Assembly (NCBI GenBank): GCA_051294905.1
Contig: CM119372.1
Coordinates: 6,512,001-6,576,000 of the forward strand
Length of the DNA stretch: 64,000 nucleotides
Source: Botryllus schlosseri
Lineage: Eukaryota
Direction: 5' to 3'
The notes beneath the pieces are model-generated. The model was not told where the DNA came from. It saw only the letters and a program-made list of their open reading frames with translations, and made no database searches. Both the position numbers and the translations under genes were made by a program. Shown here in pieces: positions 7,001-34,700 of the stretch. How positions within the stretch are numbered: position 1 is the first letter of the stretch; every line of letters starts with the position of its first letter.

Positions 7001-10000
7001 TTACTTACGTAGTTAAATAGTTCTACGTATATGTAAGCGATACAGCACCTTCTTGCGTGTATATTTATATTCGTTCATCGGATCAGAAATAATGACCACT
7101 TAATCTGTATTTCAGACAGCTAGCAAAATGCAATGACGTAATCATGCCTCATAATTCTAATAGGCAACTTGACTTGAATTGTGACTTGACTCGTGACTTG
7201 ACTTGACTTGACTCGACTTGACTCGAGTCACCTTCAAAAATCGAGTGACTTGACTTGACTCGAGTCACCTTTGGAAATCGATTGACGTGACTTGACTCGA
7301 GTCAAAATGTGCAATGACTCGAAATGACTCGTGACTCGAAGGTAGTGACTTGATCCCAACACTGCTAGGCCTATCCGCACGTCATTTTGCCAAAATATAA
7401 TGGGATACATTTGGGAAGGCTTGTTACAATGTGAGGGGAAAACAATGACTGTTCATAAGCAAGGTACTTTTGTATTACTTTTCCGGTGACTATACCTTTG
7501 ACCCGCTCCAGCCGAAAATATTAGGGTTTATTTCAATATGAATGTGCTATTCAAAGATATTATAAAGAAACTTACATTTACAGGTCTGTCATGTTTGGTG
7601 TGGATTCACCCACAACCTACCCCATCTCCTCACATTAAAATAAGGAATAAACTTATACTTTTAATCGTCCAATACCACAAAACACATACTCAGTATATCA
7701 TATTGTTAAATATAAGTAATTGCCTCACAGTTCGCTGCACATGAATTAGGTATTCATAAGCGCAGTCTTGCATTTCCGACATAGTACATTGTCGGCCATA
7801 TTCCTCCGCCCAGTATTGCGTGAAAATGTAACATCCGCAACGGTCAATCACAGCATTGGTGTAGCATTCTGGAAATGAATGCATTTTCAATGTATAATGT
7901 ACAATGTGTGATGTGTGAACCATTTCGTATATATTGAAATATGTTGAAAATACGCAGACCTTGGAGGCAATTGTTCAATGTGTAAACGGGAAAGAACTTT
8001 AAGTTTTCGTTGGATGGGTCACATATTCCCCACGGCTTGTACATCAAATTGAAGTCCTGACGGGTTACTTCGATAGACGCTTTTCTTCCGACTGGTATGG
8101 ACATGCCCAAGCTTCCTACATCGGGTGTTTCGCCACGCTGATGGACCTGATAAAATGTGCTGCCTTGTCTTATCATTGTGATATCCGTCTGACAAGCCTT
8201 TGGGAAGCATTTTGCGACGCTCCATTAAATCTCATTCAGATGCGAATTTATATACCCACAATTAGCGAGGATGCCAATATATACAATCACAATAATGTAA
8301 TAAGTGGATGCTGTCACTTAACAGCGGATGATATGATAAACTCACGCAAGATGTAATAATAATGTTGACTACATCTTTTCACCGGCTTTAATCAAACAGA
8401 ATAGCTGTAGTTTGAAGCATGCTATACAAATTTGTTCGTAATAGAAGTATATCCGTAAAATATTCATGCCTGTATTCTCAATCCCGCATCCCGTAAACCA
8501 AAAACGGGCTCCTCCGTTATGCCGTCTAGCTGCACATTCAAGGTCACAGAAAGACCGTTTCCCGCTCCGGGTATGTTCTGAATTTTACTGACGTTATCAG
8601 CGTTGAAGGTATGACAGACGCCCATCCACGACAGGACTTCAGAAAAATCTTCGGATGAGCAATCCTCGTATTTGAACCTGCAAGTATGAATCTTGTTGAT
8701 GCGGTCTGGTTGTACAAAGGAGTCGTTTCTGAATACGATTCTCGACAATATATTTAAAAAGTACTACTATTGCAACGTTCCTATTTAATTGAAGCAGAGT
8801 GTAGGTCTGTACGTGTAATAATAAATGTGTTGCTAGCTGGTTCTAATTGAGAATGCTATCATCATATGTTTACAGCGATTGCCGTAGTTTGAAACTTATT
8901 GTTAGATCGAGATTCATGCCCAGATCAGTCATCCACGAATAGCTAGGGATATTTTACACGGACTATAGGCCGAATTGTCTCTTTCTGAGAAGAGGTGGTA
9001 CGCAGCTAAAGGAAATTCTGTCAGTATAAAATTAAATATTATATTCAAATTGAAATCAAACCGAGTGCCAAAATATTAACCCGTGTGTCAACCAAAAATA
9101 TTCGGGTTGATTTTATAGGGATATATTATTCAGATATTGAAGCTCTCTAACCCCAGCAATCTCTTTAAATTTATCAGGCAATACCAACAAAGGATGTGAA
9201 ACACTGCCTTACTATGATTGCAGCTTGACATAATAATTGTTAAATATTTTATTTCACGAGATTGATTTGATATACTCGATATGGTTTGATATTTCTTCGG
9301 GTTCAATGGTTTGATATACTTCCTACGGTTCAATGTCTGTAATCAGAAGGGCGATATTTTTGACATTGAAAAAAAAGTCAAAATTTTGTCAAAATTGTAG
9401 CGTTAGGTCGAAAAATTGTTTACAAGGTCAAAATTGTTTGCAACCTGCAGTTCGTTTGTATCGTAGATGATTGTACTGTCGGTGAACTTATAATTTGGAA
9501 TCTTGTAGGCATTCCGTTGTAGATGGCCCATTGTCTGCTCATCGTGAATCATAAACAGTCAAATGAAACAAATATAGGTCTACATGGTGTTATGCTCCAC
9601 ATTTTTCGTCAATTCTTGGCCCGAGAATGCAGGAAAGCATCTTTCGTTGCACTACAACAAATTTTAATTATTTCCACCATAATGCGTGATGTAACTACTG
9701 GAATTCTTCATAGGTGCGGATTTCGTTAAAATAAAGTTTTTTTCATGTGAAAATCTGTCCGTTTTTAAGAAACAAAGTTTTTTCAGGCCAAAGTACTTCG
9801 TAAAGACATACAGTTCCAACCAGAATAGAAGATAACTAGTAAAATTATAACAATATGTGCTAAAACGCCTATAATTTACATACATGAGGGCAAAGTTTGC
9901 TAAAATTAAGTTTTATAACGTAATGAAATGTCAAAATTTTATTTTTTAGTCAAAATCTTCTTCTGGGGGTAAAATATCGCTCTACTAATAAGTAAAATGT

Positions 10001-13000
10001 CGTAACCGCTCCCCAGAACCGGTCGCGGAAATGATAAGCACGAAACTTTTTGCAATAGATAATAATTGAGTGGTATAATCATATAGAAATGAAACCCGAA
10101 TATTTTCGGCTGACACTCGAACATTTTATATTAACAATCGTGACGTCATATTTTGTGATAGGATTGTTGATATACAATGTTCTTTCCAATTCTCTACTAG
10201 TTCCTGACGAATACCCCTGACGAGTGTCAGCCGAAAATATTCGGGTTTCATTTCAATATGAATATACTATTCAATTGTATACTGAAGTTCTGTACCTCCA
10301 GAAGAAGCTCTTCAAATAGATGATAATAAAAATAATGAGAAATGACATGCATGCTTACACGCAACGTGGCATCACTTTTCCGGTGAGGTAAAATCCGTGC
10401 TTCCTCAGCAATCTTCTGATATTCAATTCACTGTCCAGTAGATCGGCCACCTCACTCAAATTAGGTCTGTGATTTCTGATTCCGTTTCTCCCCACGTTTG
10501 TCGGAGTTATGAGCTGATTGAACACGTGAATCGCGTCGATCAATGGCGATGCTTGCGATTCCATATAAAATCTTAAAACAGGAAAAAGTCGATTGGATAT
10601 GAAGCTACATCAAGTGTTTATATTAAAGTATCTATTCGAGTTTTTTTTCTGGTGCATTAAGGAAGAAGAAAGCGTGATGGTTTGCATTCATGATACAGTG
10701 GGTAAGGCTGAGCAAAATCGAGTACCTATTGCATTTCACTTTGTGACAATGCTGTGGTTTGATTATGACGTCACAGACATGTCATTTCACTCATGTGCGT
10801 AGCTTTGTACGACTTGTTTCGTATACTGCGATACGCCCAATCGAGGTTTACAGCCTTCCGCAGTAGATATCATTATCGAAACTAAAATTGCGATTAAGAC
10901 ATTAACTCTTAATGGCAAAGGTACTCGAATAACTCATATTTTACTATAGTCGTCTCGAAGCATTAGAATTGATACTCTATTCAGATTCGAGTAGGCCTAC
11001 TCAAATTATTGTGTCCAGCCCTAACAGATGCATCCACGTTAGCCAACCATTGAAACATGCGTTGCTCGCAAATTTCATTTGATACTTTACAAGATTGCAA
11101 CTAGTATGTGCGCCGTGCGGTTAGACATAGGAATTACCTATTGAATGTGCATATCGTTACTGCTGGAAATGGCATCTCTACCACAAACTCCTGAATTATT
11201 GATGTATTCGTTTCGTAATCAAAGTACGCGACAATGCGATCAACGACTTGATATGTCAACATGGCACCCATACCTGAAAGGAAAATACCTTGCAACCGTG
11301 CGCTAAAACAGTCTGCGCCAATAGCCTGCCTGTTTCGATTCCTAATCACAGGCGCGTATAGCAATACATAAGCATATTCTAACCCAGAGGTCTCAAACAC
11401 GCGGCCCACGAGAACATTCTGTGCGGCCCGCGATGGCATTAGGGAATTTCAAGTATTCGGACATTAGATTCAAGTGCCATATATCTTTTTTAGATTTAAG
11501 AAATTAAAGTTCACTATAAAACTACTACAAAACCTTAAATCTCCACAGACTTCACTATCACATCACATTTAAAAGCTACCAGGCGGACGAAGATCAGGTC
11601 ACATTTCTGGTTCATGATGATAAAACACGACCCGTTGATGATTCGTGCCTGAAAATTTTGATTTGGTTAGGTGGGACTTTTCGTAAAATTACTCGATTAC
11701 GAATTGACTGAGTGAATAAATAAAAATGACCCTAGTTGAGTCGGGTCAAACGTTAAAATCAGAGAAGGGCTTGTGCCCCGGAACGGTGAATTGGTGTTCG
11801 TACAGGCGCAACAATCTATGAAACGGTCATAGGGAATAGCAATATATCGAAAGGTCGTAGCTTGCGCTGCGTAGGATATATATCTATCTAATCAGATCAG
11901 TATGGCAACAACTGGCATTCTGTGACCCCCGCGACGTGGTTATACATCCTGGGTGTTGTTTGTTCTCTTTATCCATGTTATTATCGGTGGCGAGTAAGGT
12001 AGTGGTACCCTACACAGCTGTAACACCAATGGATTGGCGATTGGATATTTCTACTCCAGTGATCCTTAACCAGAGTTCCGCAGACCCCTTCGAGATACGA
12101 AACACCACATCAGAGGGTACGAGATGTATTGTTGAATAAGTCCTCTATGCCGTGGAATATTTTCTTGGCTAATTTATTGATCTGGAAAGTATTTTTCGCG
12201 CTATGCGTGATTTTATAAGAATGGGCTTTCTGATTTAAATATAGGTACCATCAGAAATTATGTTGAAAACGGACAGAGATGTGAGAAATCTTCTTGAAAG
12301 GACAATGGGTACGATCGCTAAAAAGGTTAGGAAGCAATGCTATTACCATGGTGCAATAATGATTATATTTAGGTTGTTATTGATAAGTTCCAATAATATT
12401 CGAAGGTATATCTGACGCTGATTAAATTTGACTTTGGCAGTGACAGTAACAATAGCCTACTTATCACGACTATATCAAAAAAACGGAATAGGCTCCGCTG
12501 CTCAAATGCTCTGACATCAGGCCAATCTTCAGTAAATTTTAAAATATTCTACATAAAATTGTGACACGTCAAAGGTCCACTAGCTGCAATATTATAACCC
12601 GACAGCTTTTACGATGTCATGATGCGTCCTCCCGTATGATGTCTATATTAGCCTACTCATTTTTTAAATTATGCACGACACAAAAACAATTTTATTCAAA
12701 TATTTCAAAATGTGATTTTTCCGTGCCAGCGTGAACAGTTCAATAGTAAATTACATTTCATGATGTTTGTGGAATGCCTGCCTGCAAGGTCCCGTCAAAT
12801 AAGGCCTACTTGTAAATTATACGCCCGCAGCGTCATCAAGACTATAAGAAATGGGCACGGGAACACATTTGAGTTTGAGGCCTCTGTTCTAACCAACTAA
12901 AAGAATGATCCAGAAGGCTTTGATCGGTTTTGACTTGCTGTTGTAGTAAAACGAAACCCCGTGCATTGTAGTTGTTGAAGCAAAGTTTTCCAATGGATCT

Positions 13001-13212
13001 TCATGCTTGCCATCTCTGGCCATATCGATTTCCGCAACATTCTTCTTGGAGATATTGGAACGCATGTTCGGCGATCCTAACTCTGTCTCATAGTTGGATT
13101 GAAATGGTTTGCCTGACATACTATCCATCAACTGATAATCATCCAGATCTGTCGTTCTTTCTCTATGATCGTTCGAATCGGGATATACTTTCCCACTATA
13201 AACGGGCAGCAT
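4013..13212 (-). CDS. DEG/ENaC/ASIC-superfamily ion channel subunit, paralogue A (9 exons, about 516 aa)
   Basis: Exons (minus strand): 13212-12894, 11273-11138, 10571-10359, 8677-8470, 8146-7960, 7868-7729, 4715-4608, 4531-4399, 4119-4013. They total 1551 nt and every phase is compatible. Motifs: FASTTTMHG (HG motif), TM1 FWIILLVG, MPFPAVTICTFNR, GVCHTFN, GAGNGLSVTL, KPWGIC, Cys-rich thumb, SSLLSDIGGQLGLWLGMSIITAVE (TM2). All introns are GT-AG except intron 4 (GC-AG). Confidence 0.93.
4175..4196. repeat. 22-bp perfect palindrome with near-identical 8-bp flanks (micro hAT element or footprint)
   Basis: CAGGGATATCTAGATATCCCTG flanked by aatcatac / attcatac. Confidence 0.7.
5006..6415. mobile_element. 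hAT MITE (CAGTGGTTCTCAACC TIR) with a nested Buster-type fragment from 5462
   Basis: TIRs cagtggttctcaacc / ggttgagaaccgctg, TSD ccctaggc/ccttaggc, gcggacccc subterminal repeats. The nested cagggacgggcaac end at 5462 is followed by decayed LVLFG...EQTVSTMN..INKKRLRT. Confidence 0.85.
6426..7364 (+). mobile_element. hAT MITE family A (CAGTGTTGGGAT TIR, GACTTGACTCGAGTC arrays)
   Basis: TIRs cagtgttgggat / atcccaacactg, degenerate TSD ttaggccc/ctaggcct. Homologous to 23349-24356 and 39913-40884. Confidence 0.9.
9342..9990 (+). mobile_element. Internally deleted hAT-like element, same family as 56150-58290
   Basis: Ends agggcgat / atcgctcta. Shares the blocks gtgaatcataaacagtcaaatgaaacaaat and ccataatgcgtgatgtaactactggaattcttcatagg with the 56-58 kb copy. 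Confidence 0.7.
10703..11023. mobile_element. MITE (TAGGGCTGGGC-like TIR), related to 31327-31806
   Basis: Ends taaggctgagcaaaatcgagtacc / tgtccagcccta. The left end is the reverse complement of ggtactcgattttgcccagccca at about 31783-31805. Confidence 0.6.
11385..12886 (+). mobile_element. hAT MITE family D (CAGAGGTCTCAAAC TIR) filling intron 1 of paralogue A
   Basis: TIRs cagaggtctcaaac / gtttgaggcctctg, perfect TSD ttctaacc. Homologous to 49241-50415. Confidence 0.9.
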
Positions 13213-13915
13213 GAATGCGATCTCGTACTACTCGCCTACACTGAGTCCACATATATAGGTAAACCATTTATATCTATTCAAGTTAGCTGACCCAGAGAAA
13301 ACTTGGTAGCTGTTTTTCGGAATCTCTTTGAACGGGTGATCTATTTTACCTCATAAAATCGAGAGAAAGCAAAGCTCTCTCACTAGTGCAGACTTCGCAG
13401 AGAATAGAGGCGGGCACATAATCTTGCTTCACCGAAAATAACCAAGTTATACCCTTACTAAACATATCGAATATCCTGATATATATCTATCAACTTACAG
13501 CACCTAACAAGCTAATCGGACTATGCTGGTCCGAATTTCGGGAGAGTTGATGGCAACGACATACTTGTACTTGACTGCACGCTCTGGATGAAATAGTATA
13601 TCACCTCGGTGTAATTGCCATTAATCTGTATGGTGACACTGACAAACCTTTAGTGACGATGAGCCAGGTAGCTGGGAACTTTCTAATTCTAATAATCCAG
13701 TACATTACCTGATCGAATGTGGGCTGTAGCTCCTTTACCAGCCAGAAACAAGCAAATTAGTTTGACTTGACTGCATACGCCTATTTCACAGGCATAGAAG
13801 ATGTGTCAGTCATGTGAAGTCGAAACCGGCTCGGGCTAGCATTATTACTGGCTATTATATGTTCCCCGACGTTATTGTGACAACTAATTATTACAGATTA
13901 AGGTGGTATTAATAC

Positions 13916-14339
13916 TAGGCTTACCATATTTTGGAAATCTAAAAAGAGGACACTTTTTCAGAAATTTGAGACTTGCAAAACCGGAGAGGAATTCTCAAAA
14001 TTCGGTGAAATTTTTCCCACTTTGTGATCGGTTGACTAAAAAAAAAAGGTCAACTTTCCCGCTCAGAGCCCAAAATACCGTTTCTTCCTCCACATTACCG
14101 GGTGGTTGACACTGAAAAAAAAGGTCATCTTTTCGCTCAGAGCTCAAAATACCGTTTGAGCGTCACTGCTGTGCTAAATTACGGCATATCCCTCGTATTT
14201 TGCTCTAAATATGACCTCAATTTTCAAAAAAGAGGACAAAATCTCAAAAAAGAGGACAAAAGGGCGTCCTCCAAGGACACTTTCAAAAAAGTCAAAAAAG
14301 AGGACAAATCCTCTCAAAAGAGGACGTATGGTAACCCTA
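13916..14339. mobile_element. hAT MITE (TAGGGTTACCATA TIR, AAAGAGGAC repeats)
   Basis: TIRs taggcttaccata / tatggtaacccta, perfect TSD attaatac. Confidence 0.85.
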
Positions 14340-14637
14340 ATTAATACGAGCATGATCATTGCATATGACAATAACAATGAGACTATATCTATCGCGAACG
14401 GCGAACTCCGTATCTATCGCCAACCAAACCAGCCAGAGACGCTTATTTCTCTTTCTAATTAACGAAGCCCGCGGGAATATCATTCAATACATTTTATTGA
14501 GCAAAATGAAATGAAATCAGTTATCCCGGTACGTTAAAGCAAATATCAAGCATATATTACGTTAACCGAAGCAACTTTGAAAAACTGTGGAAATACATGT
14601 CCAATTTTCCATGCACTGTGCAATATACACGTCTGCA

Positions 14638-17600
14638 TCATTTTTCGACTCTTTTTCTCCGACATTGCGACAACTTTCTTGCACAAAATTGTATCACCTC
14701 CACCACAGTAATGACGCTCATACCGAGCCACAATCCCAGCTGCCCGCCTACATTATGCAAAGAAAAAAACTTTCATCATATTATCTTGGGATGTAATAGA
14801 TACTACTACTACCATATGTATGTTTTTGACGCCTATATACAAGTTCTAGTTAGCGTCGAAGCATGATTTACTGGACACGTACAACGCACCGAGCTCATGA
14901 AACGTCATGAATGACTTGAGTTCGAATTCTGGTGCATGTCATTTGAATCATTTTTGTTTTGTTATTTCCGATCGGTTCCAATCTATATTTCTTTCGTCAA
15001 ACAATAATAACTATATTGAAATATTCGTTGGTGCAATTCAAATCCATATGCCCGTTTCTTGTACCATTCATTTTAACATTCACAGTTGAAATAGCGTTGA
15101 AATATTGATATATGCTGAGAGTGGATGAAACGCAACTTCCAGTCAGAATTTTCCGTCGGAAAGCGCCCGGCCGCACGTCACTAATGGAAATAAGCGGCTC
15201 GGCCATATCAGTTGAATTCCCCTGTTTTCTGTACAATAAAATTCCGAAAACTTCATGTTGCGTAGCCGAGCAAAGCATGAGCACATACCGATTACAGCCT
15301 ATGAGCATTAATAAGTGCTTACGGTTTCCATGGTCGGCAGATGCGATTGATGGCTGGACATAATGGTAAGATCAAATATTTTAAAGTAATACAACTGCCC
15401 TTCTGTTTGCGAGGGTAAATTGGGACTATTTCGTTCTATTCTTTTTGTTATCTGACAAAGATGAAAGGCAATGACTTTTATTCTGGCGCCTGCAGATAGT
15501 CTTCAACGGTGACCAGGTCTTTATCCGGCAATTTATGACGTAACACTCACTGGGTATGGAAGTCTTGCTAAAGCGGTTTATTATGTGTCGCCTTATGTAT
15601 AAATGCACACATTATTTGTTTTGAATAAATAATTAATAAGGTAATATCAACCGCGATGTACACTAAAGTAACCATCGGATCTAATTGAGTCATATGTGTA
15701 AGGATCAGAGGTCGACCGATATTGATTTTTGCCGGCCGATACCGATACCAATTATCGACACACTAACAAGGCCGATACCGATATCATAGGCCGATATTAA
15801 TACGGAAGGAGCAGAGAACCATTTCGCCAAAAAATATTAGGCAAGGTTTCACTTGAACATGCCACGGAAAGCTGAACAACTGATCAGAAAACTGAAATTG
15901 AAAAAAAGTACTTCCTAATTGTGCACGTTCATTGAAATTTGGGATAACCCAAAAAGCAAAACGTGATACAGCATTGCAGATCAGTCCAGTAGAGGTAATA
16001 CAGGAAACATAGTTTCTCTGCATGATCACACAGTGCAACTCGTCCTACAAGGGTAAATATATCACGTATCGCCCTCTGTGTCGTCGATTTCTTGAATTTC
16101 CAATATTTTAGAATTTTTTTTAGATGCAAAATAGCAGCCGCGATATCGGCCTTCACAAATTTAGATTATGAGCTGGCGCTATAAATGTATTGCGACGTAA
16201 CAAATGACGATTTCCAAAACTTTTTGTCTCTAATCGTATTCATGCATTTCCCATTTACTCAACCGTGTATAGTCGCCATGAATATATCTTGGCATCAAGA
16301 AAGCGATATAAATGCAATGGTGAATAATCATGTTGACTATTCCATATGATCATTATCGATTGTTATTGCTTCATTTTGCTGTAGTCGTATTCGTAATCGC
16401 CTATATACATTAGGGATGTTCAAAAATGACTTTTTGTTTTCAAATTGTACTGGCTACTTGATAAAATTGTTAGGTTAGGGAATTAAAGGCTGCATACCAA
16501 ATTTGGTTCAAATTCCAATTTACGGTGGCTAATTCTCGAACTGGCCACCGTAAATACTATTTTATTCAAATCAAAAATTTTCTATTGCAATAACTCCGCT
16601 TCCACCGTTTGGAATTGAGCCAAATTTGCTGAGCATCGTTTCTATAGGCAACCTAACAATTTCCAAGGGTGAGCATAAAATTTTGTATTTATTTATTTTT
16701 ATTTTTATGTATAATAAATAAAAAACTTTCTTCTCTTGTAACAATGCGGCTGCTGGTTGGAATTGAAACAAATTTGGTGTGAAACCTGTAATTAGGTAAC
16801 GTAACCATTTTATCAAGTCGCCAATACAATTTGAAAACAAAATTCATTTTTGAACGCCCCTAATATGCATTAACGCAGCTCGCAGCATGCCTGGCCAGTG
16901 GTCGGTATGCACTCAGCCAGCCTGAACCTAGTTGGTCAGTTATACAGTGACAGTATACGATTTTGAGTATCCATAAATAGTTTGACCAAAGACTTATATA
17001 AGTGTTTTTAACTATCAAAATCATATTATAAAGTGCCCGAAACACAGAAAACGCTTTCCCACCTATGTCACTGATCAAACTGGAGCCATCAATTTTCTTC
17101 GATTGCGTATACTTAGTGTAGCTCATTCTTGGGAAGTAGACGTCGAAAGCAATGTAGTTCTGCGAAGACTCTTCCGACGACAAGTTGTATGCCACCTATT
17201 AAATTGTCAGGAGGGCATGCTCAAAAGAATGCGATTGGGAAGACACACCTTTATTAAGTATTCTATGCACACATTGCACAGGTCGCACATCACTAGAGCC
17301 GATAGGTCATCACATCATTGAAAGCGATACACCTTGTATGTTGCATATTTCTAAAGACAACGCAGAGAGTCTAATATTAAGGTGTTTTCAATAGAAATAC
17401 ATCTCCGATTGAGATCGAGAAGAAATATAATATTACGTGTTCAATAATTGACGTCAACGGTTCGTCTAATGAATCTCACAATCTTGCATCATGTGCTGGT
17501 GAGTATAATGAGATTGATCCCGCATTCAAACAAAATATGTTCGACAATTTCATGTAACATATAACAACAGAGCTTCGCGTCCACTGTGCAGTGAAAATCC

Positions 17601-20600
17601 ATAATTTTAGTAAGCGTGTACAATAAATTTTCCAAATGGCCAACTCGACATATACTATTAGGGCAAGCCTGGAAACAAATATCCTGAATTCGCATCACAC
17701 CTGTAGATATTTCATGGTGGACGGGTTCGGATATGCAGAGTACGACACTGATGTGTGAAACTCTGCGAATTTGCATGGTACCGGGCATCGGCAAATAAGA
17801 GATGAATGCTAAATGTAATAAATTGAATATGTCATGTAAGCATATGTATAGAATAGAACAATATTTATATAATGCTGACAGTCAAAGTATAGCCGTAGAC
17901 TATATATGTAGAACTTATTTACTTGATTATAAAATACTTTTCGTATACAAACTTTTCGCAATATCAGAGATACAAAGTACGGGTTAGCACAATACTGCAT
18001 TTCGTGCAGGGTGCATTCGCGGCTGAATCCGGCCGCCCATGGCTGTGTGAACAGATAACAGCCACAGCGCTTGATGATGGCGTCAGTGTAACACTCTGAA
18101 AAATGACAATTACAGACACGATGTCGGATTCTATATCTGCTGTGGAAATCAGTGGTTCTTAACATTTTCGATCTTGCGGCACCCTTGGAAAGCGAAAGTT
18201 AGTTCGCCGTACGCATACAATTCCGAGTATACCATCAGTGTAAGATTTGGGAAGTTCGTGACTTCATGACTAATGACATGTCATTAACTTACGTCAATTC
18301 TGATGGTTGCCGAGGTACGAATACCGTGGCTTTCTATCAACTTTAATTTGAGACTACATCATGTTAAGAGCGCTGTGACCGTCTACTTTTTGTCTCATGT
18401 CGACAGCAATCCTTATTGCTTTACCTCATTTTCTCGAGGCACCGCTGATCAGTCTAATCGGCAACTCCAAGGTGACGCGACACTCCGGTGGAGTACGAAC
18501 GAGTTAAATAGTCAGTAGTACACGAGAAAAATTATTCTTATTGATTCGCGAACCTTGTGCGCAATTGTACAGGGTGTAGTTTGAGAAGTACTTGAGTTTT
18601 TCTCGGGAAGGTTCACACTGACCCCATGGCTTATGCATTATGTGAAAATCGCTACGGCGCACTTCGATAGAGGCTTTCCTTCCAACAGGAATGGATATTC
18701 CGAAGCTGTTAACATCAGGAGCTTCTCCTCTATCGTGAATCTGAATATTTCGATTAATTGATTACATAAGTCGAGGTTACATTTATATAGAGTACAGTGA
18801 AGTCGAGGATCAAGAAATTCCTGGGCGCGTCATGCTTTCGCCTGGTTCAACTCCCCTGAACTCTTAGTCCATAGTCAAGAAGGCCGACTAAAGGCTGCTC
18901 CGTAAAGTTTTGCAACGGTGAGTATATTAACACACTCAGTCCGTTTCCCGAACCAGGTACATCCTGGTGAATTTCCGTAATAAATGTGTGGCACAGCCCC
19001 ATGAAGGACATAGACTTTGAAAAATCATCTGCGGTACAGCGTTTGTAGTTGAACCTGGTGACAAAACGAAAAAGATCCATAACCACATTGATATGGTTGG
19101 GTCGTAGATTCTAAACGTGCTACGAATAGAGTTTCGACGAGATGGATCAAAAGACTGTGAAAGTGCTGTAGAGGGTGTACCGGTGTAGCAAGTGATTCCG
19201 CCGAGGACTGGACACGAAATTAAGCGCCCTCTACTTCATTTATACAAAGCAAAGTACCACAGGCCCTGACTGCGAGTGCATTTATAAAAATTGGTATCCA
19301 AAAATCGTAGCGATTTTATGAGCGATTAGATTTTCTAAAAGTGACAATATATATCAGCCCTATTTCAGATGTTTAATTTATACCAAGGATCCGCATTGAA
19401 TCGCGATATATGCTAATTTATCTCATAGTTATACAAGACCGATCAATCCGATCTTAAACCAAGCATGTGTAGCCTAAACTGATCCGGATTCGTAAATAGC
19501 CCACGTTACCCACTGGAACATACCAAGTTACTCTTATTTTGGAGATGACAACCAGGGATGGCGTGAACGTGAGGTTCACGTTCGCGTTCTTTGTGTGAAC
19601 CTCTGAAATTTAGAGGTTCACGTTCGCGTTCTGTGTGTGAACCTCAGAAATTTAGAGGTTCACGTTCACAAACGAAGCTTGGTAGGTTCTGCACTGTGAA
19701 CCTTTTTCATGTGTTACAATTTTTCGCGTCATTATAACATATACTTGGTTTAAATTCTTTGCATATCAACTTCGGAGCACTATATGCAAGGTGCTGGCAG
19801 TATAAAAATAATCAACAATAAACGAGGATGCACCTTGACAATCTCAAAATTTTTACTTGCTTTGTTACACAGGTTTGCTTGAAATATTCAACTTTCCGTT
19901 TGTGAATATTTAGTGACTCTCTGCTGTGAGCTTGACCCGCAATCACACAACATCAGGAACGAAATACACTACATCCTATACATGTAGGTAGTCAGCGAAT
20001 GATGCTTTTTCAACCAATCATTAAAATTGATATATATTCTAAAATATTCAACAGGCGTACGGGATCCATCTTAATTTGATCACAATATTGTATCACAAAA
20101 ACCAAATATGTACGATTGGGGTGTTGGTAACGGGCAATAACGGTAGCAAGTATATAGAAACACGTTTTACACTCTCCTCGATATCAATGTAGTAATAGTC
20201 AGACGCCTAATACATTGTCCGGTCTGGCCTCGACCGTTAAGGCGTGAGCTTATATTTCTTTGCAAGTCCTCGTCGAAATTGTTGGCAGAGCGACAGACGA
20301 TATTGATTTTATGGGATTATTATACCATTTGATTGCTTCAGTTGATACATTTGGTGACGTTTAATAAGTCAGCCTGTACTGAAAGCTCAACATCGTGGCA
20401 TAATGTGGCCTGAGTCGTCGCTATAGGTATCGTTTACTCAATGTACTGTACATTAATACATCATTTCACTGAAATATAGGGTTGGAATTAGTAAAATGAT
20501 GTCACATGACGTCACAAGGTTCACGTTCGCGTTCACACAGAACCTTTCAAAAAGATTCGTGTTCACACAAACCTGAACCTTTCAGGGGTTCGCGCAATCC

Positions 20601-21834
20601 CTAATGACAACCACTGTTATTCAACAACTCACCAACACTTACGCGCAGAAAGCCAAATGTTTTTTGAGGTCAAATCCTCGAGTCTGTAGCAGCCGTGTCA
20701 TGTGCAATTCGGGATCCAAAACAGTCACAGACGACACGTTCAGGGTTATGTTATTTAGCACGTTATGTATGATCATTTTCGGAGATATAAGCTGGTTAAT
20801 GACGTATGTCGCATTAAGGACATCGGGATCTTTGGTATCCATGTAAATTCTGAATACAGTCACAAAATGTGTCGTTAACCAGTTCGTCGCGTACGGTAGC
20901 CCACTGCGTCACCTGTTGAAACTGCATACGGTCACAGCAGGAAACGACATAGGTGTTTGGTAATCCTGAAATATCTCTGTTGTTGTATCGTGTTGCAAAT
21001 AAGCACCGACTCGGGCAGCAATGTGATAGGTCAAAGCAACAATCATTCCTGTGAATGATCAAGACGTTAGTCAGTCAATGTATAGTCACTATATATCAGC
21101 AAGGATACACAACAGGTTATCGACTATATACCTGAACAGCCACCGAAATATCTCACTAGCTGCAATGATGTACGTGGTACATGCACATTGCACAGCGAGT
21201 AATATATTTATGGAAGCGGTTAACAAGACCCTATGAACTACATCTATCTGCATTATACTTCTCCGCCCTTGAAAACGAATAATACTCCACTTAGGTATCG
21301 AAGCTCTCAAGATTACCGGACCACAATCTGAAATATCGACCTTGCCTACTGACACACGCAGCATTCATTTTTGTCGCTTCCTTTCATGTTATCCTTTATT
21401 AAATCCAGTGTTCATGTCCCATATTTACATGCTGAAGGCCAAGGTGAGTATCTGATCAAAAGACTACTCCAAGTCAATTCGGCACCCCTATTTTTCATTA
21501 TATCGTAATCTTCCGGTATATTGATTTGACATATACATTTTAATAAAATGATGAGGAAGAGGCGATTATGATAATGATGGTGAACTTGGATGATTCGCAA
21601 TTTCTTTATGTCGGACTCATAACTGTTGAGTGTACAACTGTACAAGTGTACATGGAGAAACGTACCAATTATAAGACAAATCCAGAACCATCTCGAGTTG
21701 GTAGATCGACTTTTGTGACAATTCAGCACACCATGCATTGTTGTTGAATTCGCGAATTCGTCTACAACTGCGTCAAATTCATTTTCCGTTTCTCCTTCGC
21801 TGCTGCAACGTTCTTTCGTTAGCTCGAAAGTCAT
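14638..21834 (-). CDS. DEG/ENaC/ASIC-superfamily ion channel subunit, paralogue B (9 exons, about 463 aa; intron-4 donor non-canonical)
   Basis: Exons: 21834-21666, 21048-20913, 20849-20643, 19054-18856, 18740-18554, 18095-17953, 17808-17701, 17195-17063, 14747-14638 (1392 nt, in frame). Motifs: FANSTTMHG, SFPAVTVCSFNR, GLCHTF, GSGNGLSV, KPWGQC, SSLISDIGGQLGLWLGMSVITVVE. The start codon is uncertain. The exon-4 donor reads GGGAGT. Confidence 0.88.
15707..16155. mobile_element. Degenerate MITE with CCGATA repeats
   Basis: Starts cagaggtcgaccgata with gccgataccgata repeats. The right end is decayed (gatatcggcc). Confidence 0.45.
16411..16862. mobile_element. Foldback hAT MITE family B (TAGGG..TTCAAAAATGAC TIR)
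   Basis: Long imperfect TIRs, TSD atatacat/atatgcat. Related to 22712-23327 and 46233-46631. Confidence 0.85.
19553..20603 (+). mobile_element. hAT MITE family C (AGGGATGG TIR, GTGAAC/GTTCAC repeats)
   Basis: TIRs cagggatggcgtgaac / gttcgcgcaatcccta, perfect TSD atgacaac. Inverted homologue at 48291-49230. Confidence 0.9.
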
Positions 21835-23327: not shown

Positions 23328-23348
23328 ATGTACATTGGACGTAAAATG

Positions 23349-25274: not shown

Positions 25275-28200
25275 TTAACCGCTGACACTGTTCCTTCTTG
25301 TCTCTCTACGCCTTTTCCGTCCACACTCCGTCAATTTTCGAGCACAGAAACGTATCAATTCTACAGCTGTGATGGCGCTCATGCCGAGCCATAGTCCGAG
25401 CTGTCCGCCTGCAACATAGTTGAAAGGAAGTGGAAATTGTCACATGATGACTGAGAATATAGTTTTGCGATTACGATTATAGGCAAACTTCACATAAGAC
25501 ATAAGACCCTACGTGCGTGTTGCATAGCTTACTTCCTTAGAGGATGATCGCCATATGTTCACTTGTAGTCTACTGGATATTTCGCCAACTAGCCCATAGA
25601 AGAATGATGGATTCAGTACATTTTTCCACGGGTGCAGCCAAAGTAAAACGAACGATGGAGATTTTGATAAAACGTCAAATTCCTAACAATTTTAGCCACT
25701 CTCGTAAATCTGCCCCAGTAAATCGTTATATTCCACATTTACTTGGAGTAGTCAGGATCAGAATAGGGATTTCCGTCTATTATCTAAAATCGAGTGCAGC
25801 AGTTATTAACATTAAATGTCAATTGGAACTTGAAGGGTCCGTTCACCTCTTCAACATCCATATAACAGCTGCACCAATAAATTATGCGTTGGTAATTCAC
25901 AGCAGTATAAAGCTTGTGTATTGTGTACGCATCATGCACTGGTTCGCTTTGATTGGTTCACATTTAAGAAACGGTAGTTTGACAAAGCGATCGCTCCTAA
26001 CGTGGTGCTTTACCTATGTCACTGATTAAACTTGACTCATCAATTTTCTTCGATTCCTTATATTTCGTGTAGCTCATGGTTTTGAAGTATACATTGAAAC
26101 GCATGAAGTTTTCGATTGACTCTCTCTCGCTGTAGTTATATCGTTCCTGTGTGAATAAATTGAATCACAGATTACACTGTGTTATTCTACACATATTTTT
26201 CCACCATCACCGCACTATAAAGAATTGTTACGATATAAGCTACTGAAACGCAGCACCCCGAAAGAAATAACCAGGGTTGCAAAGAATCGCAATTTACCGT
26301 TGACTCGACCTGTCTCGACTAGTTGTATTCAAAATGGAAAATGAATCGACTCGACTTGAGAACTTTGTGCATTGACTAGACTTGTACTCAGGATTAAAGA
26401 CATTATATATGACTTGATTCAGGACTGATACTTGACAAATAGGCCAAGAAACTGAATAACCACATTTAGGGCGCAGATAATAAAGTTGGATTAGCAATAA
26501 AGTTGATTATCGCGTTCATCAGGATTTATCAACCCAGGATTAAGGAGACCGGTCCATCGCAGCGCATAAAGTTGTTGTTAATCTCATGATTTAACAAACC
26601 GGAGAAAAATTATAGATAACTAGTTAAAGTTATCTATAAGAGCTGCGTACACTGCGTACCATTCCTACGCTCAAATATTCCCGATAACGACCGTGCCGAT
26701 TGTCTCCAGGTATTACCTTCACTAAACAATCAACGAATTATGTACCCGCCATTGCAGATCGATATCAATATTCTATAATCCGTTTCTTTGCTGTACCGTA
26801 CGAATTGGACACGACTTTCATTTCGCAATGATGATAATTCGACCTATCACAGTGGCAGTATCGCTGTCAGCAGGCTGCTGTTTCATTCAACTAATTGATA
26901 AATGATGCCTCTAACGCGTTTTCGTATTATGACGCAACAGATAACGTCACTTGATTGAAAACTCGGGACACCTCGACTCAGCCTCGACTAACCATCGCGC
27001 GTAACCTTTTCCAACTATATGCGTCGCGATTAGTAGTATTTAATCACACGATTACCATTCTTCCGGATCAGCAGACTTTATTATCTCCGCCCTGAGAGTA
27101 AGACAATACAGTAAAAATATTAATCCGAGGCCTTCGATACAGGGTTGTAATGACTCGAGTCATGACTCGACTCGAGTCCGACTCGAGTCACGATTATCTG
27201 ATGACTCGACTTGACTCGAGTCATTTTTTCAAAATACGGAAATGACTCGACTCGACTTGTACTCGAGTCATTGCCCATGGCTCGATCCAAGTCATTGACT
27301 CGAGAGACAGACGGCCAAGACCGACATTTCATTGTAATTCCGAAGCCAACACACTATTGGGATTTCGTCTGTGGGTACTGGTACTTGAATATGCGACCAG
27401 AAACTGCTAAAAGTGAGGAAAATTGGTATATTATAAACGTGAAACATTCGATATCACCAAACAGAGTTATAAAAAGTGGGTGTACCAATACTTTAACTGG
27501 CGACTGAGCAGTCTATACAGTGACTTGGACTCGGACTCGAGTCATAATTCCATGACTCGGACTCGACCCTCTGCTCGCTGACTTGGACTCGGACTTGACT
27601 CGGTGGTGAATTAAAATGACTCGACTTGACTCGAGTCAAAACTATAAAAGTGAGATTGACTTGTGACTCGGAGCCTTGTGACTTGGTTACAACCCTGCTT
27701 CGATATCACCCAAGTGTTTTCAAAAAAGTGAGACGAACGCGACTCGATAATGTACACCACGACTCGGTCTCGAATCCCAACAATATGACTAGGACCCGAC
27801 CCTTTGCTCCCTGCCTTGGACTCGGACTAGTCTCGGTGGTGGGTAGCAAATGACTCGACTTGACTTGAGTCAAAACTATAAAAGTGCGATTGACTTGTGA
27901 CTTGGACCTTGTTACAACCATCAAAATTACCGCTGTCAGTTCCTGTGAAAAATTCATTGTCTGTTATAAATCGACGTAGCGAAACGATTTCACTATAATT
28001 TAGATTCCCTCCAAACATTTCGATATTTACTCCTCTGGTGATTGACGAATACATACAACATATACACCTTGACGTAATCAGCGGTCGGTGGGCTTGGAAA
28101 ACCAGCATACGACAGTGATGTCTTGTATTGGGTGTGTTTGCACGGTACAGAACATCCACAAGTCCTAGCAGACGACTAGAAAATAAAATAAAAAATATAT

Positions 28201-28711
28201 TATCTTCGCCTTCCTCTCCCTTGCATAGTGTGACACGGAGGTGGTCAAAGTAGTCAAGAAAGCTACTCAAGTAGAAGTCGAATTAGCGACTAAAATCTAC
28301 TAAAGTACGAGTAGAAGTGGTCCTTTTAAAAGCATCCTAAAGCTAATTCAATTAGAAGTAGCTACGCTAAAATCGACTCAAGTAAGTATGTATAGTTGTG
28401 AAAAGCAGTAGATACGCTCGCATGGGCTGTCAAAAGTAGGAAACTGAACGCATCGGGCCATATTGACTGTGGTGAAACGTGTCATATTGGCGACAATACG
28501 GTAGAAAGGAAACCGTTATACCTCAATGATACTGAATATAACTTTTGCGGAAACATAATACATCTTTTGCATTCTCTACGAGTTGCCGACGATTACCCCT
28601 GACGCGTGTCAGCCGAAAATATTCGGCTTCATTTCAATGTGAATATATACCATTCAATTGTATATTGAAGTTCTGTAGCTCCAACAATCTCTTGAAAGTG
28701 TACTTTTCACT

Positions 28712-28757
<46 letters not shown>

Positions 28758-31700
28758 GGAAGAATAGTAGAAGTATTTCGTTGCTGACCACCTCTGTGTG
28801 ACAACATCGTAATGAGACATTTGCGATCAATGGATCTTCAACACCCCCAGCGATATTCTATAATTTTTATCATCCTGCCTACTGTGGCATTGAATGGCAG
28901 TCCTAAAAATCACCGGCGACCTCCTGCATTTTACCGTTAGCAGTTGCACACATTGTGTTGTCTTACTTCACTTACCGCCCTTTGTATTCTAATATAGAAC
29001 TCTCCAGCACAATCCTGAGTCTCTTCAAGGGTGCACTCGCGACCAGACCCCGCGGCCCATTGTTGTGAGTATAGGTAACAGCCGCAATGCTGAAGTATAG
29101 CATCTGTATAACACTCTGCACAAGTGAATTTCGTGAGGTAACGAGGATGAAATATTGCTAATATATTTGGTATACCATGAAAGCAATTGCGCAGAGTGTA
29201 GTGCTCGAAGTATTTCAACTTTTCTCGTGTCAGGTCACAACGTCCCCACGGCCGCTCCATCAGTTCGCAATCCATGCGATCCAGCTCGATCGATGCCTTC
29301 ATACCGGCTGGAATGGATATACCGAAGTCTTCAACATCTGGCGTGTCCCCGCGTTCGTGGACCTAAATTACATGGTCATGTTTGTGACGTATTGTGAAAG
29401 ATAGAAGTGATGACCCGGGTAACATCTTTCTAGAGCAGAGGTTTCCGGTCTTCCACAATGGGGGTTCCGCGAGTCAATCTGAGGGGCTTCCTGGATGCAA
29501 ATACCCACGCACATATCTTGCATATGATTTGGGCTGGTACGACCGTCTTGACCATGACAGATTGGTGGAGAATATAGTTCCCATTTTGGCCCAAACAGTA
29601 GTCGAATTGTAATTGTTGGGGTCTCGTGCAGTGCCGCATATGCAGGGGAGGTTTGGGTCGAAATCTAAACCTCGTCCTTTTAAAATGCCAATTATATGTC
29701 CAATACGTGTGGCGTAAGCTCATCTGTAATATCACGCTGCTACATTTCGACCGAAAAATATAGACGATGATCTTTTTTCAAGGTGACGCCTCGCATTTCG
29801 GAATCCTTGCAGAAGTCTGATTTGCAATAAATATTCATCATGTTTTTGTTTTGTGTGGTAATGTTTATGGTAATGTAATGTAATGGTGAACTGAGTCGGA
29901 GTCGAAGTCGGTACGTTTAAAGACCCAGGAGTCGGAGTCGGTAGTTTAGAGACTCACACTGTAAAAAATAAAGGTGGGCTAAAATGGAGGTGGAAACCAC
30001 AATTACCACTTTCATGAGAGGTGGGTACATGCCATACACCTCTGAAGAAGGTATAATACCATAATCCCTTTCTTTACGAAAGGTGGGTACATGCCATACA
30101 CCACCGAAGAAGGTATATTATTCTTCCCACTTCCAACAATACATCTTCCACCTGCCTAAACCCTCCTATAGAATGAAGTACTAGCTTTTGTTGCCTCCTC
30201 ACACCCAAACTCCATGGAGCTGTAACGGCGGACGCTCAAATTTATAAGCCGTGGAATGCATATTTTCAGTTTTCACCTTCTTATTAAAATCGTTTTCAAT
30301 ACCAAGCTATTATTGTTGTTGTGACAGTATATATCTTCATCATCATTTGTTTATTAGCAATGAGCTATGAATTCAGTACACCACAAAAATGAGATACAAT
30401 GAAAAGACAGCCGTATAAAGTTTATTCCAAAGTTCTGATATTGTTATGCAGGGTATCGACATAATATTATACTAAATTATGCAACGCATCAGTTATTTGC
30501 GCGGCGATTCCGCGAAGTCAGCTGAGTTTCCACGGGAACCACATTCTCAAGGGAAACCCCGTTCAACCATCGAGTTTCATAAACACCGATGAGCTTATGG
30601 TTCGACTTACATCTTACTATCCTATTCAGTCAATTTCTAGTCTGTACTCGATAATGATAAATATAATATTTATTTGGTGTACTAATTAGTAAGTCGAACA
30701 CAAAAAGCGAAGATATTACTATCTCTATGCTGAGTGATCAGCCATGTCGGTTACGCTTTAATTAATCAGCGGTCTAACCTCGAAGCAGACAGATCGAAGA
30801 GACCGCGTCGGCGGCGCATGTCTTCTCTTGTAGTTCATTGTGAAGCTAATTCTTATGAGTTGTGCCTATTCTTACTACACATGCAATAGTTATACGTTTT
30901 TTAATATGAACCGTTTCTTCCTGTTAAGGAATGCGGTATGAATGCATTCTGTTCTCGCTAGCATATACCCGTATATATAGTTGCTCAACTGTTCATGTCG
31001 TTGTCGGCTGTCTGACGACCGGCCGCCATATTGGAGAATGGACATTACATTACGCCACGTGCAGAAATGGAAGGTGAGACGATAATGGACTAATAAATGG
31101 ATTTTGCATGCTTCAAACTTGCCTTTTCAAACTTACATGCCTAAGTCAGAGTCAGCTTCAAATGCTCAGTTCAGTTGAATTAATTGTTTGAAAATTTTAG
31201 AAGTACCGGTAACTGCAATTTATGGTCATTTTCTAATATGAAACCATGCTATATGGTATATCCAGTAGGGAATTGGTGTATACGCAGCACACTTAGGCGA
31301 CTGACTGGCTGACTATGACTAGTAGCTGGGGCTGGGCCCAATGATTCGAGTAATCGAACCTGAATAGAGGATTAATTCTTATGATTCGAGTCGAGTAGGA
31401 AAATACAATATTTTCAATTTATACCCGAAAATTATAGTTTTGATACTTATTTTCACAGTTGAAGACTTGAAATCTTGATTGGCGTTATCGTAGCCTACGA
31501 AACCAATAGTACAAAAGCTACCAAGGTTACTGGACGTAGCATATTTCCAAAATCATGATCACCCGACAGCATTTTCACCAAGTGGAATGAAATCGGTGAA
31601 GTCGAAAAATACCAAAGCATCTTTCATGTGATGGATAAAAGGCATTAAATTCTTGGTGGTGGCATAAACGGTACATATTTCAACTTTGACATCTAACATT

Positions 31701-34700
31701 CTGTTATGACGTCATAATAAGTGATACTTGATTACTTAACTCGACTCGAAGCATATTACGTGATTCAGAATTGAATCACTCTGGTACTCGATTTTGCCCA
31801 GCCCAACTAAGCATGAAAAGTTCGACTGGCTCACAAAAGCAAAGTAAATCCTATAAATTCAAATCAGCTTATTTTTGCTGCTTCACCTGTTGAAAAAATG
31901 ATTGAGGTTCGGTTTCACAAATTTAATCTCCCAATGAAATTTTTATTCTGTCTCACTGCATATTCCAAATTTCGGCTGCTTTGCAGAAAACTGTTTCGTC
32001 TTCTGTCCCTGAAGACGAGATGAGCAAGATTTCCCATCAACGCGGAATTGGTTGAAAATAGGATTGATAGGATGAAGCGCAGAAGCTGACATCGATGTCC
32101 CGAAGACAAAATGATGGATTGTGATTGGTATGTTTTTCACTTTCTGCTATTATATCTATTACCTGTGTTGTAATAAAGCTGTTGATTTTGACATAAGCAG
32201 TGATCTCTTCAAATAGTGGTATTGAGTATCTAAATTCCGCCTATTAATTGCCTCTCGTGATATAGGCCTATAGAGCGTTCTTCAATCATGTTGCAATTGC
32301 ACGGCATCAATTTTCGCACTGTTTTTGATCTATACTAATACGTCATTACGAAGCGACACGTTGACGCACTCCACTTTGTTGTCTTGTAATGAGTTAATGT
32401 TGACCTGTATGTATTCAGTGATCAACTTGGACTTATAATATATTTTGTTTTACAGCATCTCAATATCTAGACCGGATTGTTTCCATACCTACAATTTTTC
32501 ATAAAGGATATGGCAACTTCTTCCAGGTTGAACAGGTACGGATTTTTATCAAAAACATAAGTACCTGTTTGCTTGAAATTTGGGATGGGAAAAACTATTC
32601 CACTACTGCCACAAAATCGAGCTTCAACTGTGGTTGAGTGGTGGAGATTCGGAGACGATTTGAATACTGAAAATTACGTTTTATAATATCAATTATTGAA
32701 TTATAGTATCAATACATTTCTCTCAATGTGGTGTATGAGTATTGAACCTTTTTTAGTGAGGTGCAAACCTAAAACCGGTGTTTACAAGCCCATGCTCCCT
32801 TTTTCAGCTCGGTCGCATAACCCGCAGTTCTAACTCTGAGTCCGTGAAGCACATCTTTATGGTGTTTGCAGAGCTCTAAATTTTTAACCTGAATGATAAT
32901 ATAATTTGTGATTTTCTGAGCTTGAGTAAAGCATCACTTCGGATATTTCTAGGTTAGTACAGTGTAGAAGTAGTAATTTCAAATCCATGTCAAAGCTACT
33001 TCAAGTGGAAGTAGGAAATGAAGGTCTGCAAAGTACTCGAGTAGTTTGAAAAAGTAAATATCAGCAGTTATCCGAGGTTGCTACTTCAAACTCGCCAAGA
33101 TGTACCAAACTTGCGAAAATGGACTATTGACACGAGGTGGATGGCGGTTGCACTATTATTGAGCATGACTCGGACTAAAACTTGAGGGTGTCTGCACGGA
33201 TGCCTTGATGGTTAAAAAAGGGGTCCGCGCCGACAAACAAAATTGACAGCCACTCTACTGAAGGTTACCGTTCACATTAGCTGATGACTCAAAATGGTCA
33301 TCACTCCCACCTGGCCAAGTCCGCATATGCATTGGCCTATTTGCTATTTGATATCATATGTTGACTGAAAATACGATCCGCAGTGCCCTGCTGCCGGTAT
33401 ATTTCATAAGCTGATTACTGAAAGAACATCAATGTGTATGTTGTGTGTGTGTGTAGGGTATGTTTGACCTGATGTTTCTATCACATAATAATACATTTCT
33501 TTGAGACACCCACATCCGCGTGTCCTACAATTTACTTCGGTACAATGAAGAAAGAGTGGACCGTCTGGTTTGATGTTGAAATGGTGAAGAATATCGAGAG
33601 GCATTTGCAGTGATGCTAGAAATTCATTGGATCTTCGAAATGCAGTTTCTGACTGTCATTTCAGTTTTTCTGGCTCGTTTGCCAGGTGTAAAAGACATCA
33701 GTACTGCAGCTTATGCCAAACTGGATCACATTCGTGACTAATTTGCAAATAAAGTCATTGGAATGAAGGTGATTTAGTGCTTAAAGTGTGGTATATGCTG
33801 TACCTCGAGGATATCCGGGTAGGATGAAGTGGAATCCGGATAGGGCAAGGTGGAAAGTCGCCCACCTCATCATGAGGTGGGAAAATAACCACCATAGGTG
33901 AAATAAGGTGGATAATCTCCCTCCTCTTTTGAAGGTTTTTTTGGAACACCTTAAAAGGTGGGCCCAGTTTTTAGAGTGCAGGAGTCGAAGTCGGTATATT
34001 GAAAATGTGTGGAGCCGGAGTCGGTGGTAAAATTTACCGACTTCACACCCATGGTTATCCCTAACCTGAATCTGAACTCACGCTTAGAGCTAAAGCGGAA
34101 AGAATGTATGTATTCATAACTTAAGGTGGTAATCGAAAACTGAACAACATTTCCTTATTTGTGTGTTTAAAACTGCAACCATTTTTAGCTAATCATCTTT
34201 ATCTACCGAAATTTTTTACAGTATGTGTATATATTCAGTCGATAGCTTAGTTTAATTCATATCGTGGCATACATCCGCAGATATAGTACTGTTTCCGCGT
34301 ACCACCTTTAGGGTGTTATTACACACTCTCTTCGCTAGAGGTGTATCCGAATCGTAACTTGTTCGCTACCTGTATCCTCATTCCGTAATCAAGGATCCCA
34401 TGTATTGGCTCCTCCGTGAATTGATTCGTATGCGCGAATATTGTCACTGACAAGCCATTTCCAGACCCGGCGATGTCTTGGGTCAAAGCTTCATCCCCGA
34501 TGTTGAACGTGTGGCATAATCCAAGGCGAGATAAAACCGGCGTGAAGTCTGCGCCAGTGCAGTGCCTTCCATTGAAGCTGCCAAAAGTCAAGAGGTGAGA
34601 TACCCGGGTTTGAGCTGGAGCCACGTTTTACGAATGACTTGGCGCCACTCAATCACCAACAAAAGTGATCCTTTCAGGGTCATTCCGACGAAGTTTGATT

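Follow-up and report, generated by a model that had tools for sequence, protein, structure and literature searches.

In a window of 64,000 nucleotides from the tunicate Botryllus schlosseri (NCBI GenBank assembly GCA_051294905.1, contig CM119372.1, positions 6,512,001 to 6,576,000 of the forward strand, numbered here from its first letter), the minus strand carries three tandem genes of the DEG/ENaC channel family, A, B and C, each with nine coding exons (Table 1). The element under study is intron 4 of these genes, above all that of gene B, which is predicted to begin with GG. The exon models were built from an all-against-all comparison of open frames together with three-frame views. The intron phases are identical in A, B and C (1,2,2,0,1,0,0,1), and the Pfam domain ASC (PF00858, amiloride-sensitive channel) is recognized on five of the six peptides of exons 4 and 5. 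Furthermore, the models of all three genes contain an HG motif, an FPAVT motif and the second transmembrane segment (TM2). These are taken here to be hallmarks of DEG/ENaC channels, HG as the motif preceding the first transmembrane segment, FPAVT as the one following it, and TM2 with its G-x-S. The closest solved structure is that of the human bile acid-sensitive ion channel ASIC5/BASIC (PDB 9mky, 9mkz), with E values of 4e-11 for exon 4 and 1e-7 for exons 5-6. By this best structure match the three proteins resemble BASIC/ASIC5, the likeness comprising exon 4, exons 5-6 and the motifs, and they are called BASIC-like, a clade label that rests on best hits and not on a tree. B and C form the closest pair (57 % identity) in comparison to 52 and 51 % for the other two pairs, and exon 4 of B is three codons shorter than exon 4 of A and C.

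TM2 is encoded by exon 9 (4013-4119 in A, 14638-14747 in B, 25275-25408 in C) and includes GGQLGLWLGMS in all three genes. The selectivity filter of ASIC channels presumably reads G-A-S, and A, B and C have G-M-S at this place. Two short introns are in frame: intron 5 of C (29116-29175, minus strand, 60 nt) contains no stop, and its retention would add 20 residues, while intron 2 of B (63 nt) contains one TGA.

Table 1 The three DEG/ENaC genes and the surroundings of their intron 4. A slash marks the predicted cut; matches refer to the nine positions of the donor consensus. aa amino acids, nt nucleotides
Feature	Position	Strand	Description
Gene A, DEG/ENaC (BASIC-like)	4013..13212	-	9 coding exons, model of 516 aa; frame open throughout; exons 4 and 5 both carry Pfam ASC
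Gene B, DEG/ENaC (BASIC-like)	14638..21834	-	9 coding exons, model of 463 aa; frame open provided that intron 4 is removed from its GG onwards; Pfam ASC recognized on exon 5, not on exon 4 by itself
Gene C, DEG/ENaC (BASIC-like)	25275..39642	-	9 coding exons, model of 497 aa
A exon 4	8470..8677	-	ends ATA CAG (Gln) at 8470
A intron 4	8147..8469	-	323 nt, phase 0, GC-AG; donor CAG/GCATGA, 6/9 matches; X1 contig identical over the donor
A exon 5	7960..8146	-	starts VHQRGE; 7960 is the precise end of X5 record 9, and the bin depths agree with splicing to exon 6
B exon 4	18856..19054	-	ends GLRVQ (GTT CAG) at 18856; weak in-frame GT 6 nt before the end (AGA/GTTCAG, 3/9)
B intron 4	18741..18855	-	115 nt, phase 0, predicted GG-AG; donor CAG/GGGAGT, 8/9, mismatch only at +2
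B exon 5	18554..18740	-	starts IHDRGE
C intron 4	29363..34369	-	5007 nt, phase 0, GT-AG; donor CAG/GTAGCG, 6/9; C exon 4 ends ATA CAG at 34370, next exon VHERGD at 29362

Of the 24 introns in the three genes 22 are GT-AG, the donor of B intron 6 having been picked among several nearby GT sites, and the two exceptions are the fourth introns of A (GC-AG) and B (GG-AG). An earlier note on this DNA, made from the letters alone, had described GC, GG and GT donors at the homologous intron 4 of A, B and C. All three were found at the positions given there, each junction being in phase 0. The note had also stated that read-through meets a stop within one to two codons in A and B, which is borne out (after one codon in A and two in B), and the GT paralogue C likewise runs into a stop, after 16 codons. 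Four introns lie downstream of this retention stop in each of the three genes. Both donors checked in a neighbouring forkhead gene are GT, and in the sample of 24 channel introns plus these two donors, which is a small one, GA or GG donors occur once in 26.

By sequence, intron 4 of B has the marks of a GG-AG intron, namely G at +1 and +2, an AG at the end of the exon, a U2-like remainder and an in-frame AG acceptor. Intron 4 of A has those of a GC-AG intron of the U2 type, with GC after an exon-end AG, an AG acceptor and a preserved frame; a further AG acceptor lies 13 nt upstream of the modelled one, and its use would shift the frame. A U12-type intron was considered and rejected, as the donors GCATGAAT, GGGAGTTG and GTAGCGAA show no extended donor consensus, which for U12-type introns is of the RTATCCTT kind.

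The GG of B and the GC of A are genuine genomic letters and not errors of the assembly. Reads or contigs of four of the 24 listed sequencing runs were compared with positions 7600-21100 of the window. Contigs of the DNA run X1, which may be the source sample of the window itself and so tests the assembly and not the population, cover 8445-9384 and 18565-19038 with no differing letter and no gap. The assembly error that the earlier note had named as a way to refute its observation is thereby excluded at the level of contigs, since these match the donors of A and B letter for letter. Over exon 5 and intron 4 of B the X1 depth is 26 versus 13 for the listed contig, and this excess means that a second haplotype or copy exists beyond the listed contig. 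In non-repeat bins the X1 depth is 19-26 over B exons 4-8 (17071-19325) versus 9-11 over A exons 4-6, which suggests that B alone is represented by a second haplotype or copy. The runs that contain this DNA include a seawater metagenome, in which it has a small share, and none of the runs listed as containing it is recorded as RNA.

Candidate donors of B intron 4 between -40 and +60 were scored against the nine positions of the consensus MAG/GTRAGT. The GG site matches eight of them, more than any other of the eight donors of B. The remaining candidates are two in-frame GT sites at -6 and -33 (3/9 each), a GT at +4 (2/9), which would shift the frame, and a GC at +14 (6/9). All eight positions other than +2 are matched by just one of the 22 GT donors (C3), and the pattern MAG-GG-RAGT has a single occurrence on both strands of the window, which is the junction of B intron 4. 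A context as perfect as this would seldom be struck by a disabling mutation at random; a tolerated donor is expected to possess one (PMC5714493). On the acceptor side, the sole AG within the 40 nt upstream of B exon 5 is the modelled one at 18741. In the alignment with the human ASIC5/BASIC chain 9mkz_C, position 66 of the 69 positions of the exon 4 profile falls on residue 217 and exon 5 begins at residue 221; the three remaining residues of exon 4 thus fill 218-220, and the CAG junction is without a gap against human BASIC. Sliding of the intron to another canonical pair was rejected, as no GT-AG register preserves both the frame and the residues.

Within B intron 4 the GC site mentioned above reads CAG/GCGAAA and lies at 18841 (minus strand), 14 nt into the intron and behind the stop. 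The hexamer GCATGA, identical to that at the A donor, occurs 20 nt into the intron at 18835 (minus strand), probably by chance. Folding of the RNA from 18700 to 18900 around the B donor gave no unusual structure (z=0.2), and a scan of the window with Rfam gave no match.

A diverged copy of gene B is seen in P0001, a single Logan contig protein that was the one match among six candidates in a search for orthologues that are annotated or derived from transcripts. It is an open frame on unspliced sequence, 89 % identical to exon 4 of B and colinear with B intron 4, and it is tied to B by the common shortening of exon 4 by three codons. After RVQ it reads G-S-W-N-R-R-K-H, versus G-S-stop-T-R-R-K-H in B, and its frame extends over 30 intron codons, without the stop that B has near the start of the intron. 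The glycine codon of P0001 is GGN and would therefore place GG at +1 and +2, provided that there is no indel at the exon/intron border, so that GG is apparently shared by B and its diverged copy.

B and P0001 differ in 7 of 66 codons of the exon and in 9 of 21 codons of the intron (Fisher p=0.002); with the two donor codons included, the latter figure is 9 of 23 (p=0.004). From the intron codons the divergence is estimated at roughly 0.2 changes per site, the lower bound being about 0.10. In neutral simulations that assume uniform substitution and no indels, seven or fewer exon differences were obtained in 1.8 % of 3000 runs at 0.10. In the same manner, a neutral gene B was simulated 4000 times for each level of change per lineage; its start, its frame and the 15 other splice dinucleotides all survived in 9 % of the runs at 2.5 %, in 1.1 % at 5 % and in none at 10 %. 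The protein branch of B (0.27) is shorter than those of A (0.39) and C (0.30), also if only the part after the junction is taken (0.22 versus 0.31 and 0.29). These values point to purifying selection on exon 4 of B during the time in which GG was in place. Two further searches for such orthologues gave none among 1104 and none among six candidates. P0002 and P0003, among the three matches of a later search, proved unrelated by inspection, and the one locus among 174 candidates of a metagenome scan is a chance match in bacterial DNA.

How unusual these donors are differs between the two genes. Among 24 introns, one or more GC donors would occur with a probability of 11 % at the rate known from Ciona (556 of 113,879), and one or more GG donors with a probability of 0.3 % at the human rate (0.014 %). 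If A and B have one odd donor each, both fall on the same intron with a probability of 12.5 %, or of 20 % if only introns with an AG at the exon end are eligible. Hence it is GG itself that is rare; the position shared by the odd donors of A and B is not significant and, with a chance probability of 12.5-20 %, needs no special cause. As to ancestry, two separate departures from GT had been proposed. However, B and C are the closest pair and the synonymous sites among the three genes are saturated (pS 0.74-0.84), so that a GC ancestor with a change of GC to GG in B and of GC to GT in C is an equally short path of two steps, and the proposal loses its preference.

In the run X5, gene A appears to be transcribed with intron 5 spliced. 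A contig of this run (record 9) covers 7960-8161, ends exactly at the border of A exon 5 and carries the last 15 nt of intron 4. The bin depths of 5.56, 3.48 and 0.55 are reproduced if record 9 also spans exon 6 (5.58, 3.49 and 0.55) and not if it is genomic (10.9), which suggests transcription of A and splicing of intron 5. The 15 nt of intron 4 on this record reflect either retention or use of the frame-shifting acceptor 13 nt upstream, on the AG of which the record starts. Another contig (record 10, 8371-8590) crosses the GC donor of A unspliced. GT introns, too, are represented unspliced in X5, by pieces of A intron 1 and of B introns 3 and 8, and the run is heavy in repeats, so that it holds nascent RNA or DNA and its signal at intron 4 is weak; to this weak degree the two contigs speak against efficient splicing of A intron 4 in that library. 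What depth remains in X5 over gene B (1037 and 225 depth-letters) is explained as well by a spliced as by an unspliced piece. A further record of this run (record 15, 16827-17062) starts precisely where B intron 8 starts and may be an excised intron or a chance coincidence. In run X14 about four reads' worth of letters lie on A exons 5-6.

Taken together, the GG of B intron 4 is probably a tolerated and working donor of the major spliceosome that would yield the full-length B protein, presumably with reduced efficiency. U1 pairs with the donor, and U6 pairs at +4 to +6. The glutamine codon CAG at the end of exon 4, which is constrained by the protein, could supply all three exonic bases for pairing with U1 in A, B and C. 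In B the intron would add G at +1 and GAGT at +3 to +6, so that U1 could place the cut with a single mismatch at +2. Such a strong context may let +2 vary at intron 4, and selection on the protein would remove those alleles that are unable to splice. The GC of A is, by its sequence, that of an ordinary GC-AG intron. The unspliced product, carrying a premature stop, would likely be cleared by nonsense-mediated decay (NMD) as waste and not as part of a switch; NMD would act in all three genes, as the retained transcripts stop after 1, 2 and 16 codons with four introns downstream. The earlier note had suggested a tolerated or regulated weak splice site. Its first half is favoured indirectly by the perfect context outside +2, by a GG apparently shared with P0001, a diverged copy under purifying selection, by the intact gene and by the gap-free register. 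Its second half, retention coupled to NMD as a means of regulation, is not supported, since C stops on retention too and the early stop of B is lost in P0001.

Several points weigh against a working GG donor. No spliced read or contig crosses intron 4 of A or B among the listed joints, all of which were repeat joints, and the two X5 contigs at A intron 4 both lack a junction between exons 4 and 5. In X14 and X18, of which 6 and 13 % were read, the depth on B exons 4-5 is zero, which is not evidence of silence. The GG of P0001 is read from a codon and not from DNA, in a single protein of a single contig that was chosen for its open frame, and P0001 could belong to another species or be a deep allele or a further duplicate. 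The neutral simulations mentioned above are simplified in their substitution and indel model. The B donor has G at +3, while almost all GA/GG donors of the copepod Eurytemora have A at this position (PMC5714493). Furthermore, no GG-AG intron is among those counted for FlyBase in PMC4528330, and in the human series described in PMC12805630 four of five newly tested +2T>G variants were without normal transcript.

A first alternative gives the odd donors a purpose of their own. The non-GT donors would be selected as a throttle that makes splicing of intron 4 slow or conditional in A and B and sends retained transcripts to NMD, thereby limiting a possibly leaky sodium channel. It would fit with this that two of the three paralogues are non-GT at the same intron, that GG seemingly persisted over about 0.2 intron changes per site and that retention gives a stop with four introns downstream. 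The X5 contig that is unspliced over the A donor, and the one with intron 4 sequence and an apparently spliced intron 5, agree as well. In addition, 76 % of the human non-canonical sites are involved in alternative splicing, with 28 % conserved in mouse (PMC4176328), and mammalian BASICs can be constitutively active (PMC9949801). However, the coincidence of position has the chance probability calculated above, the GT gene C also acquires a premature stop on retention, and the stop position is not kept in P0001. Outside +2 the B donor is as strong as possible, a state that agrees more with compensation than with an intended weakness; X5, with its unspliced GT introns and repeats, contains nascent RNA or DNA, and the folding gave no unusual structure. 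A throttle is therefore considered unlikely. If it were true, intron 4 would be rate-limiting in A and B, and the donors GT, GC and GG, each preceded by CAG, would form a natural allelic series that determines the dose of the channel in a chordate whose introns are otherwise canonical.

Equally unlikely is the opposite extreme, in which GG is disabling or nearly so and B is a young pseudogene or a strong hypomorph with a frame that has not yet decayed. The lack of B reads over exons 4-5 in the two bulk RNA subsamples is in line with this, weakly, as A is barely seen there too, and so are the inactive human +2T>G variants cited above. In addition, some of the seven differences between B and P0001 in exon 4 lie at positions where A and C agree. 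However, after B and P0001 separated, with GG apparently present in both, the exon was constrained relative to the intron, and the intact frame and splice sites would be improbable under neutrality at that divergence. Moreover, B has no long branch, and a random hit at +2 would meet a perfect context in about one of 22 donors.

The use of a nearby canonical site in B is more doubtful still. Such a site could be the GT six nt upstream, at the cost of Val-Gln, or the GT four nt downstream in combination with a shifted acceptor. The upstream site, AGA/GTTCAG, is in frame with the same acceptor and had been named in the earlier note as a possible refutation, and most non-canonical sites of the fly have a similar canonical alternative close by (PMC4528330). 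Both sites are poor, however, with three and two of nine consensus positions, respectively, and use of the upstream one would cost two residues at a place where the alignment with human BASIC, A and C has no gap. The residues Val-Gln and Ile-His are conserved in the manner of coding sequence, and P0001 shares Val-Gln. The weakest alternative is that GG or GC is an assembly error, already refuted, or a private variant of one haplotype, which is very improbable: runs of G such as the one containing GG are prone to long-read errors and the doubled X1 depth over B indicates a second haplotype or copy, but the X1 contigs are identical over both donors and P0001 has GGN at the B donor as well.

Besides the channel genes, the window contains a forkhead gene at 47200-47470 (plus strand), possibly extending to 52305-53663 (plus strand), with the Pfam domain PF00250 on two exons. 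The open frame of 452 codons at 52305-53663 (plus strand) may be the last exon of this gene, which is presumably FoxH1-like. A near-perfect inverted repeat lies at about 22860-23180 between genes C and B, with frames 88-97 % identical on opposite strands. A frame of 229 codons at 42113-42802 (plus strand) has a hydrophobic start and several cysteines and gave no match in Pfam.

Among known systems, GG-AG introns belong to the rarest splice classes, with 0.014 % in human, none annotated in the fly and no category in the Ciona table. Intron 4 of B thus belongs to a rare but known splice class and is not a new kind of splicing; its GG is probably a functional donor standing beside an ordinary GC in A. 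For Ciona intestinalis 556 of 113,879 introns are given as GC-AG (PMC2760879), in a table that has no GG-AG category, and intron 4 of A falls into the same ordinary class of GC-AG U2 introns. Neither for ascidians nor for DEG/ENaC genes was a GG donor found described in the literature searched, which lacked most subscription journals, and the supplementary lists of PMC4176328, PMC7072748 and PMC13326754 may hold ascidian GG-AG counts. Appendicularians, which are tunicates too, possess GV-AG introns, and the earlier note had pointed to them. In Fritillaria borealis 5 % of the introns are described as canonical (PMC13326754), and Oikopleura dioica is described with about 10 % minor non-canonical introns (PMC7072748). 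There, however, the phenomenon is genome-wide, whereas in the genes studied here GT stands at 22 of the 24 channel donors and at the two forkhead ones; against 5 % canonical introns this count rules out a system of the Fritillaria type, and the comparison does not carry over.

In the copepod Eurytemora affinis, GA/GG donors account for about 12 % of the introns, were apparently gained recently, have an obligate AG at the exon end and nearly always A at +3 (PMC5714493). As far as described there, they have in common with B the G at +1, the exon-end AG, an ordinary AG acceptor and the recognition in ion-channel genes by manual modelling. B differs from them in its G at +3, in being the single GG among 24 introns and in a position that is common to three old paralogues. 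In human, 32 GG donors (0.014 %) are cited in the same paper, and two ATM +2T>G variants gave 13 and 24 % full-length transcript in minigenes (PMC12805630). These cases indicate that the major spliceosome can use GG partially. They are mostly alternative sites or disease variants, as far as these sources go, whereas the GG of B is predicted to be the sole productive donor and is apparently kept between copies.

The closest precedent is intron 12 of SYMRK in Trema and Parasponia, where GT, GC and GA donors occur across species and the GA donor of Trema is spliced to about 95 % (PMC10668435). As in A, B and C, one homologous intron has three donor dinucleotides across copies. SYMRK, as presented in that paper, concerns plant orthologues with GA, a stated path from GC to GA and a tested function, whereas here tandem paralogues of an animal with GG are known from their sequence. 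By analogy, the efficiency of the B donor may be high, as that of Trema SYMRK GA, or low, as that of the leaky ATM +2T>G variants. If GG is, as it seems, the sole productive donor of its intron and has been retained in diverged copies, it would offer a clean natural example amid ordinary introns. Gene predictors that accept only GT or GC will split or drop gene B. Finally, GT, GC and GG behind an identical CAG form a ready series for minigene tests of compensation at +2, which bears on the judgement of human +2T variants.

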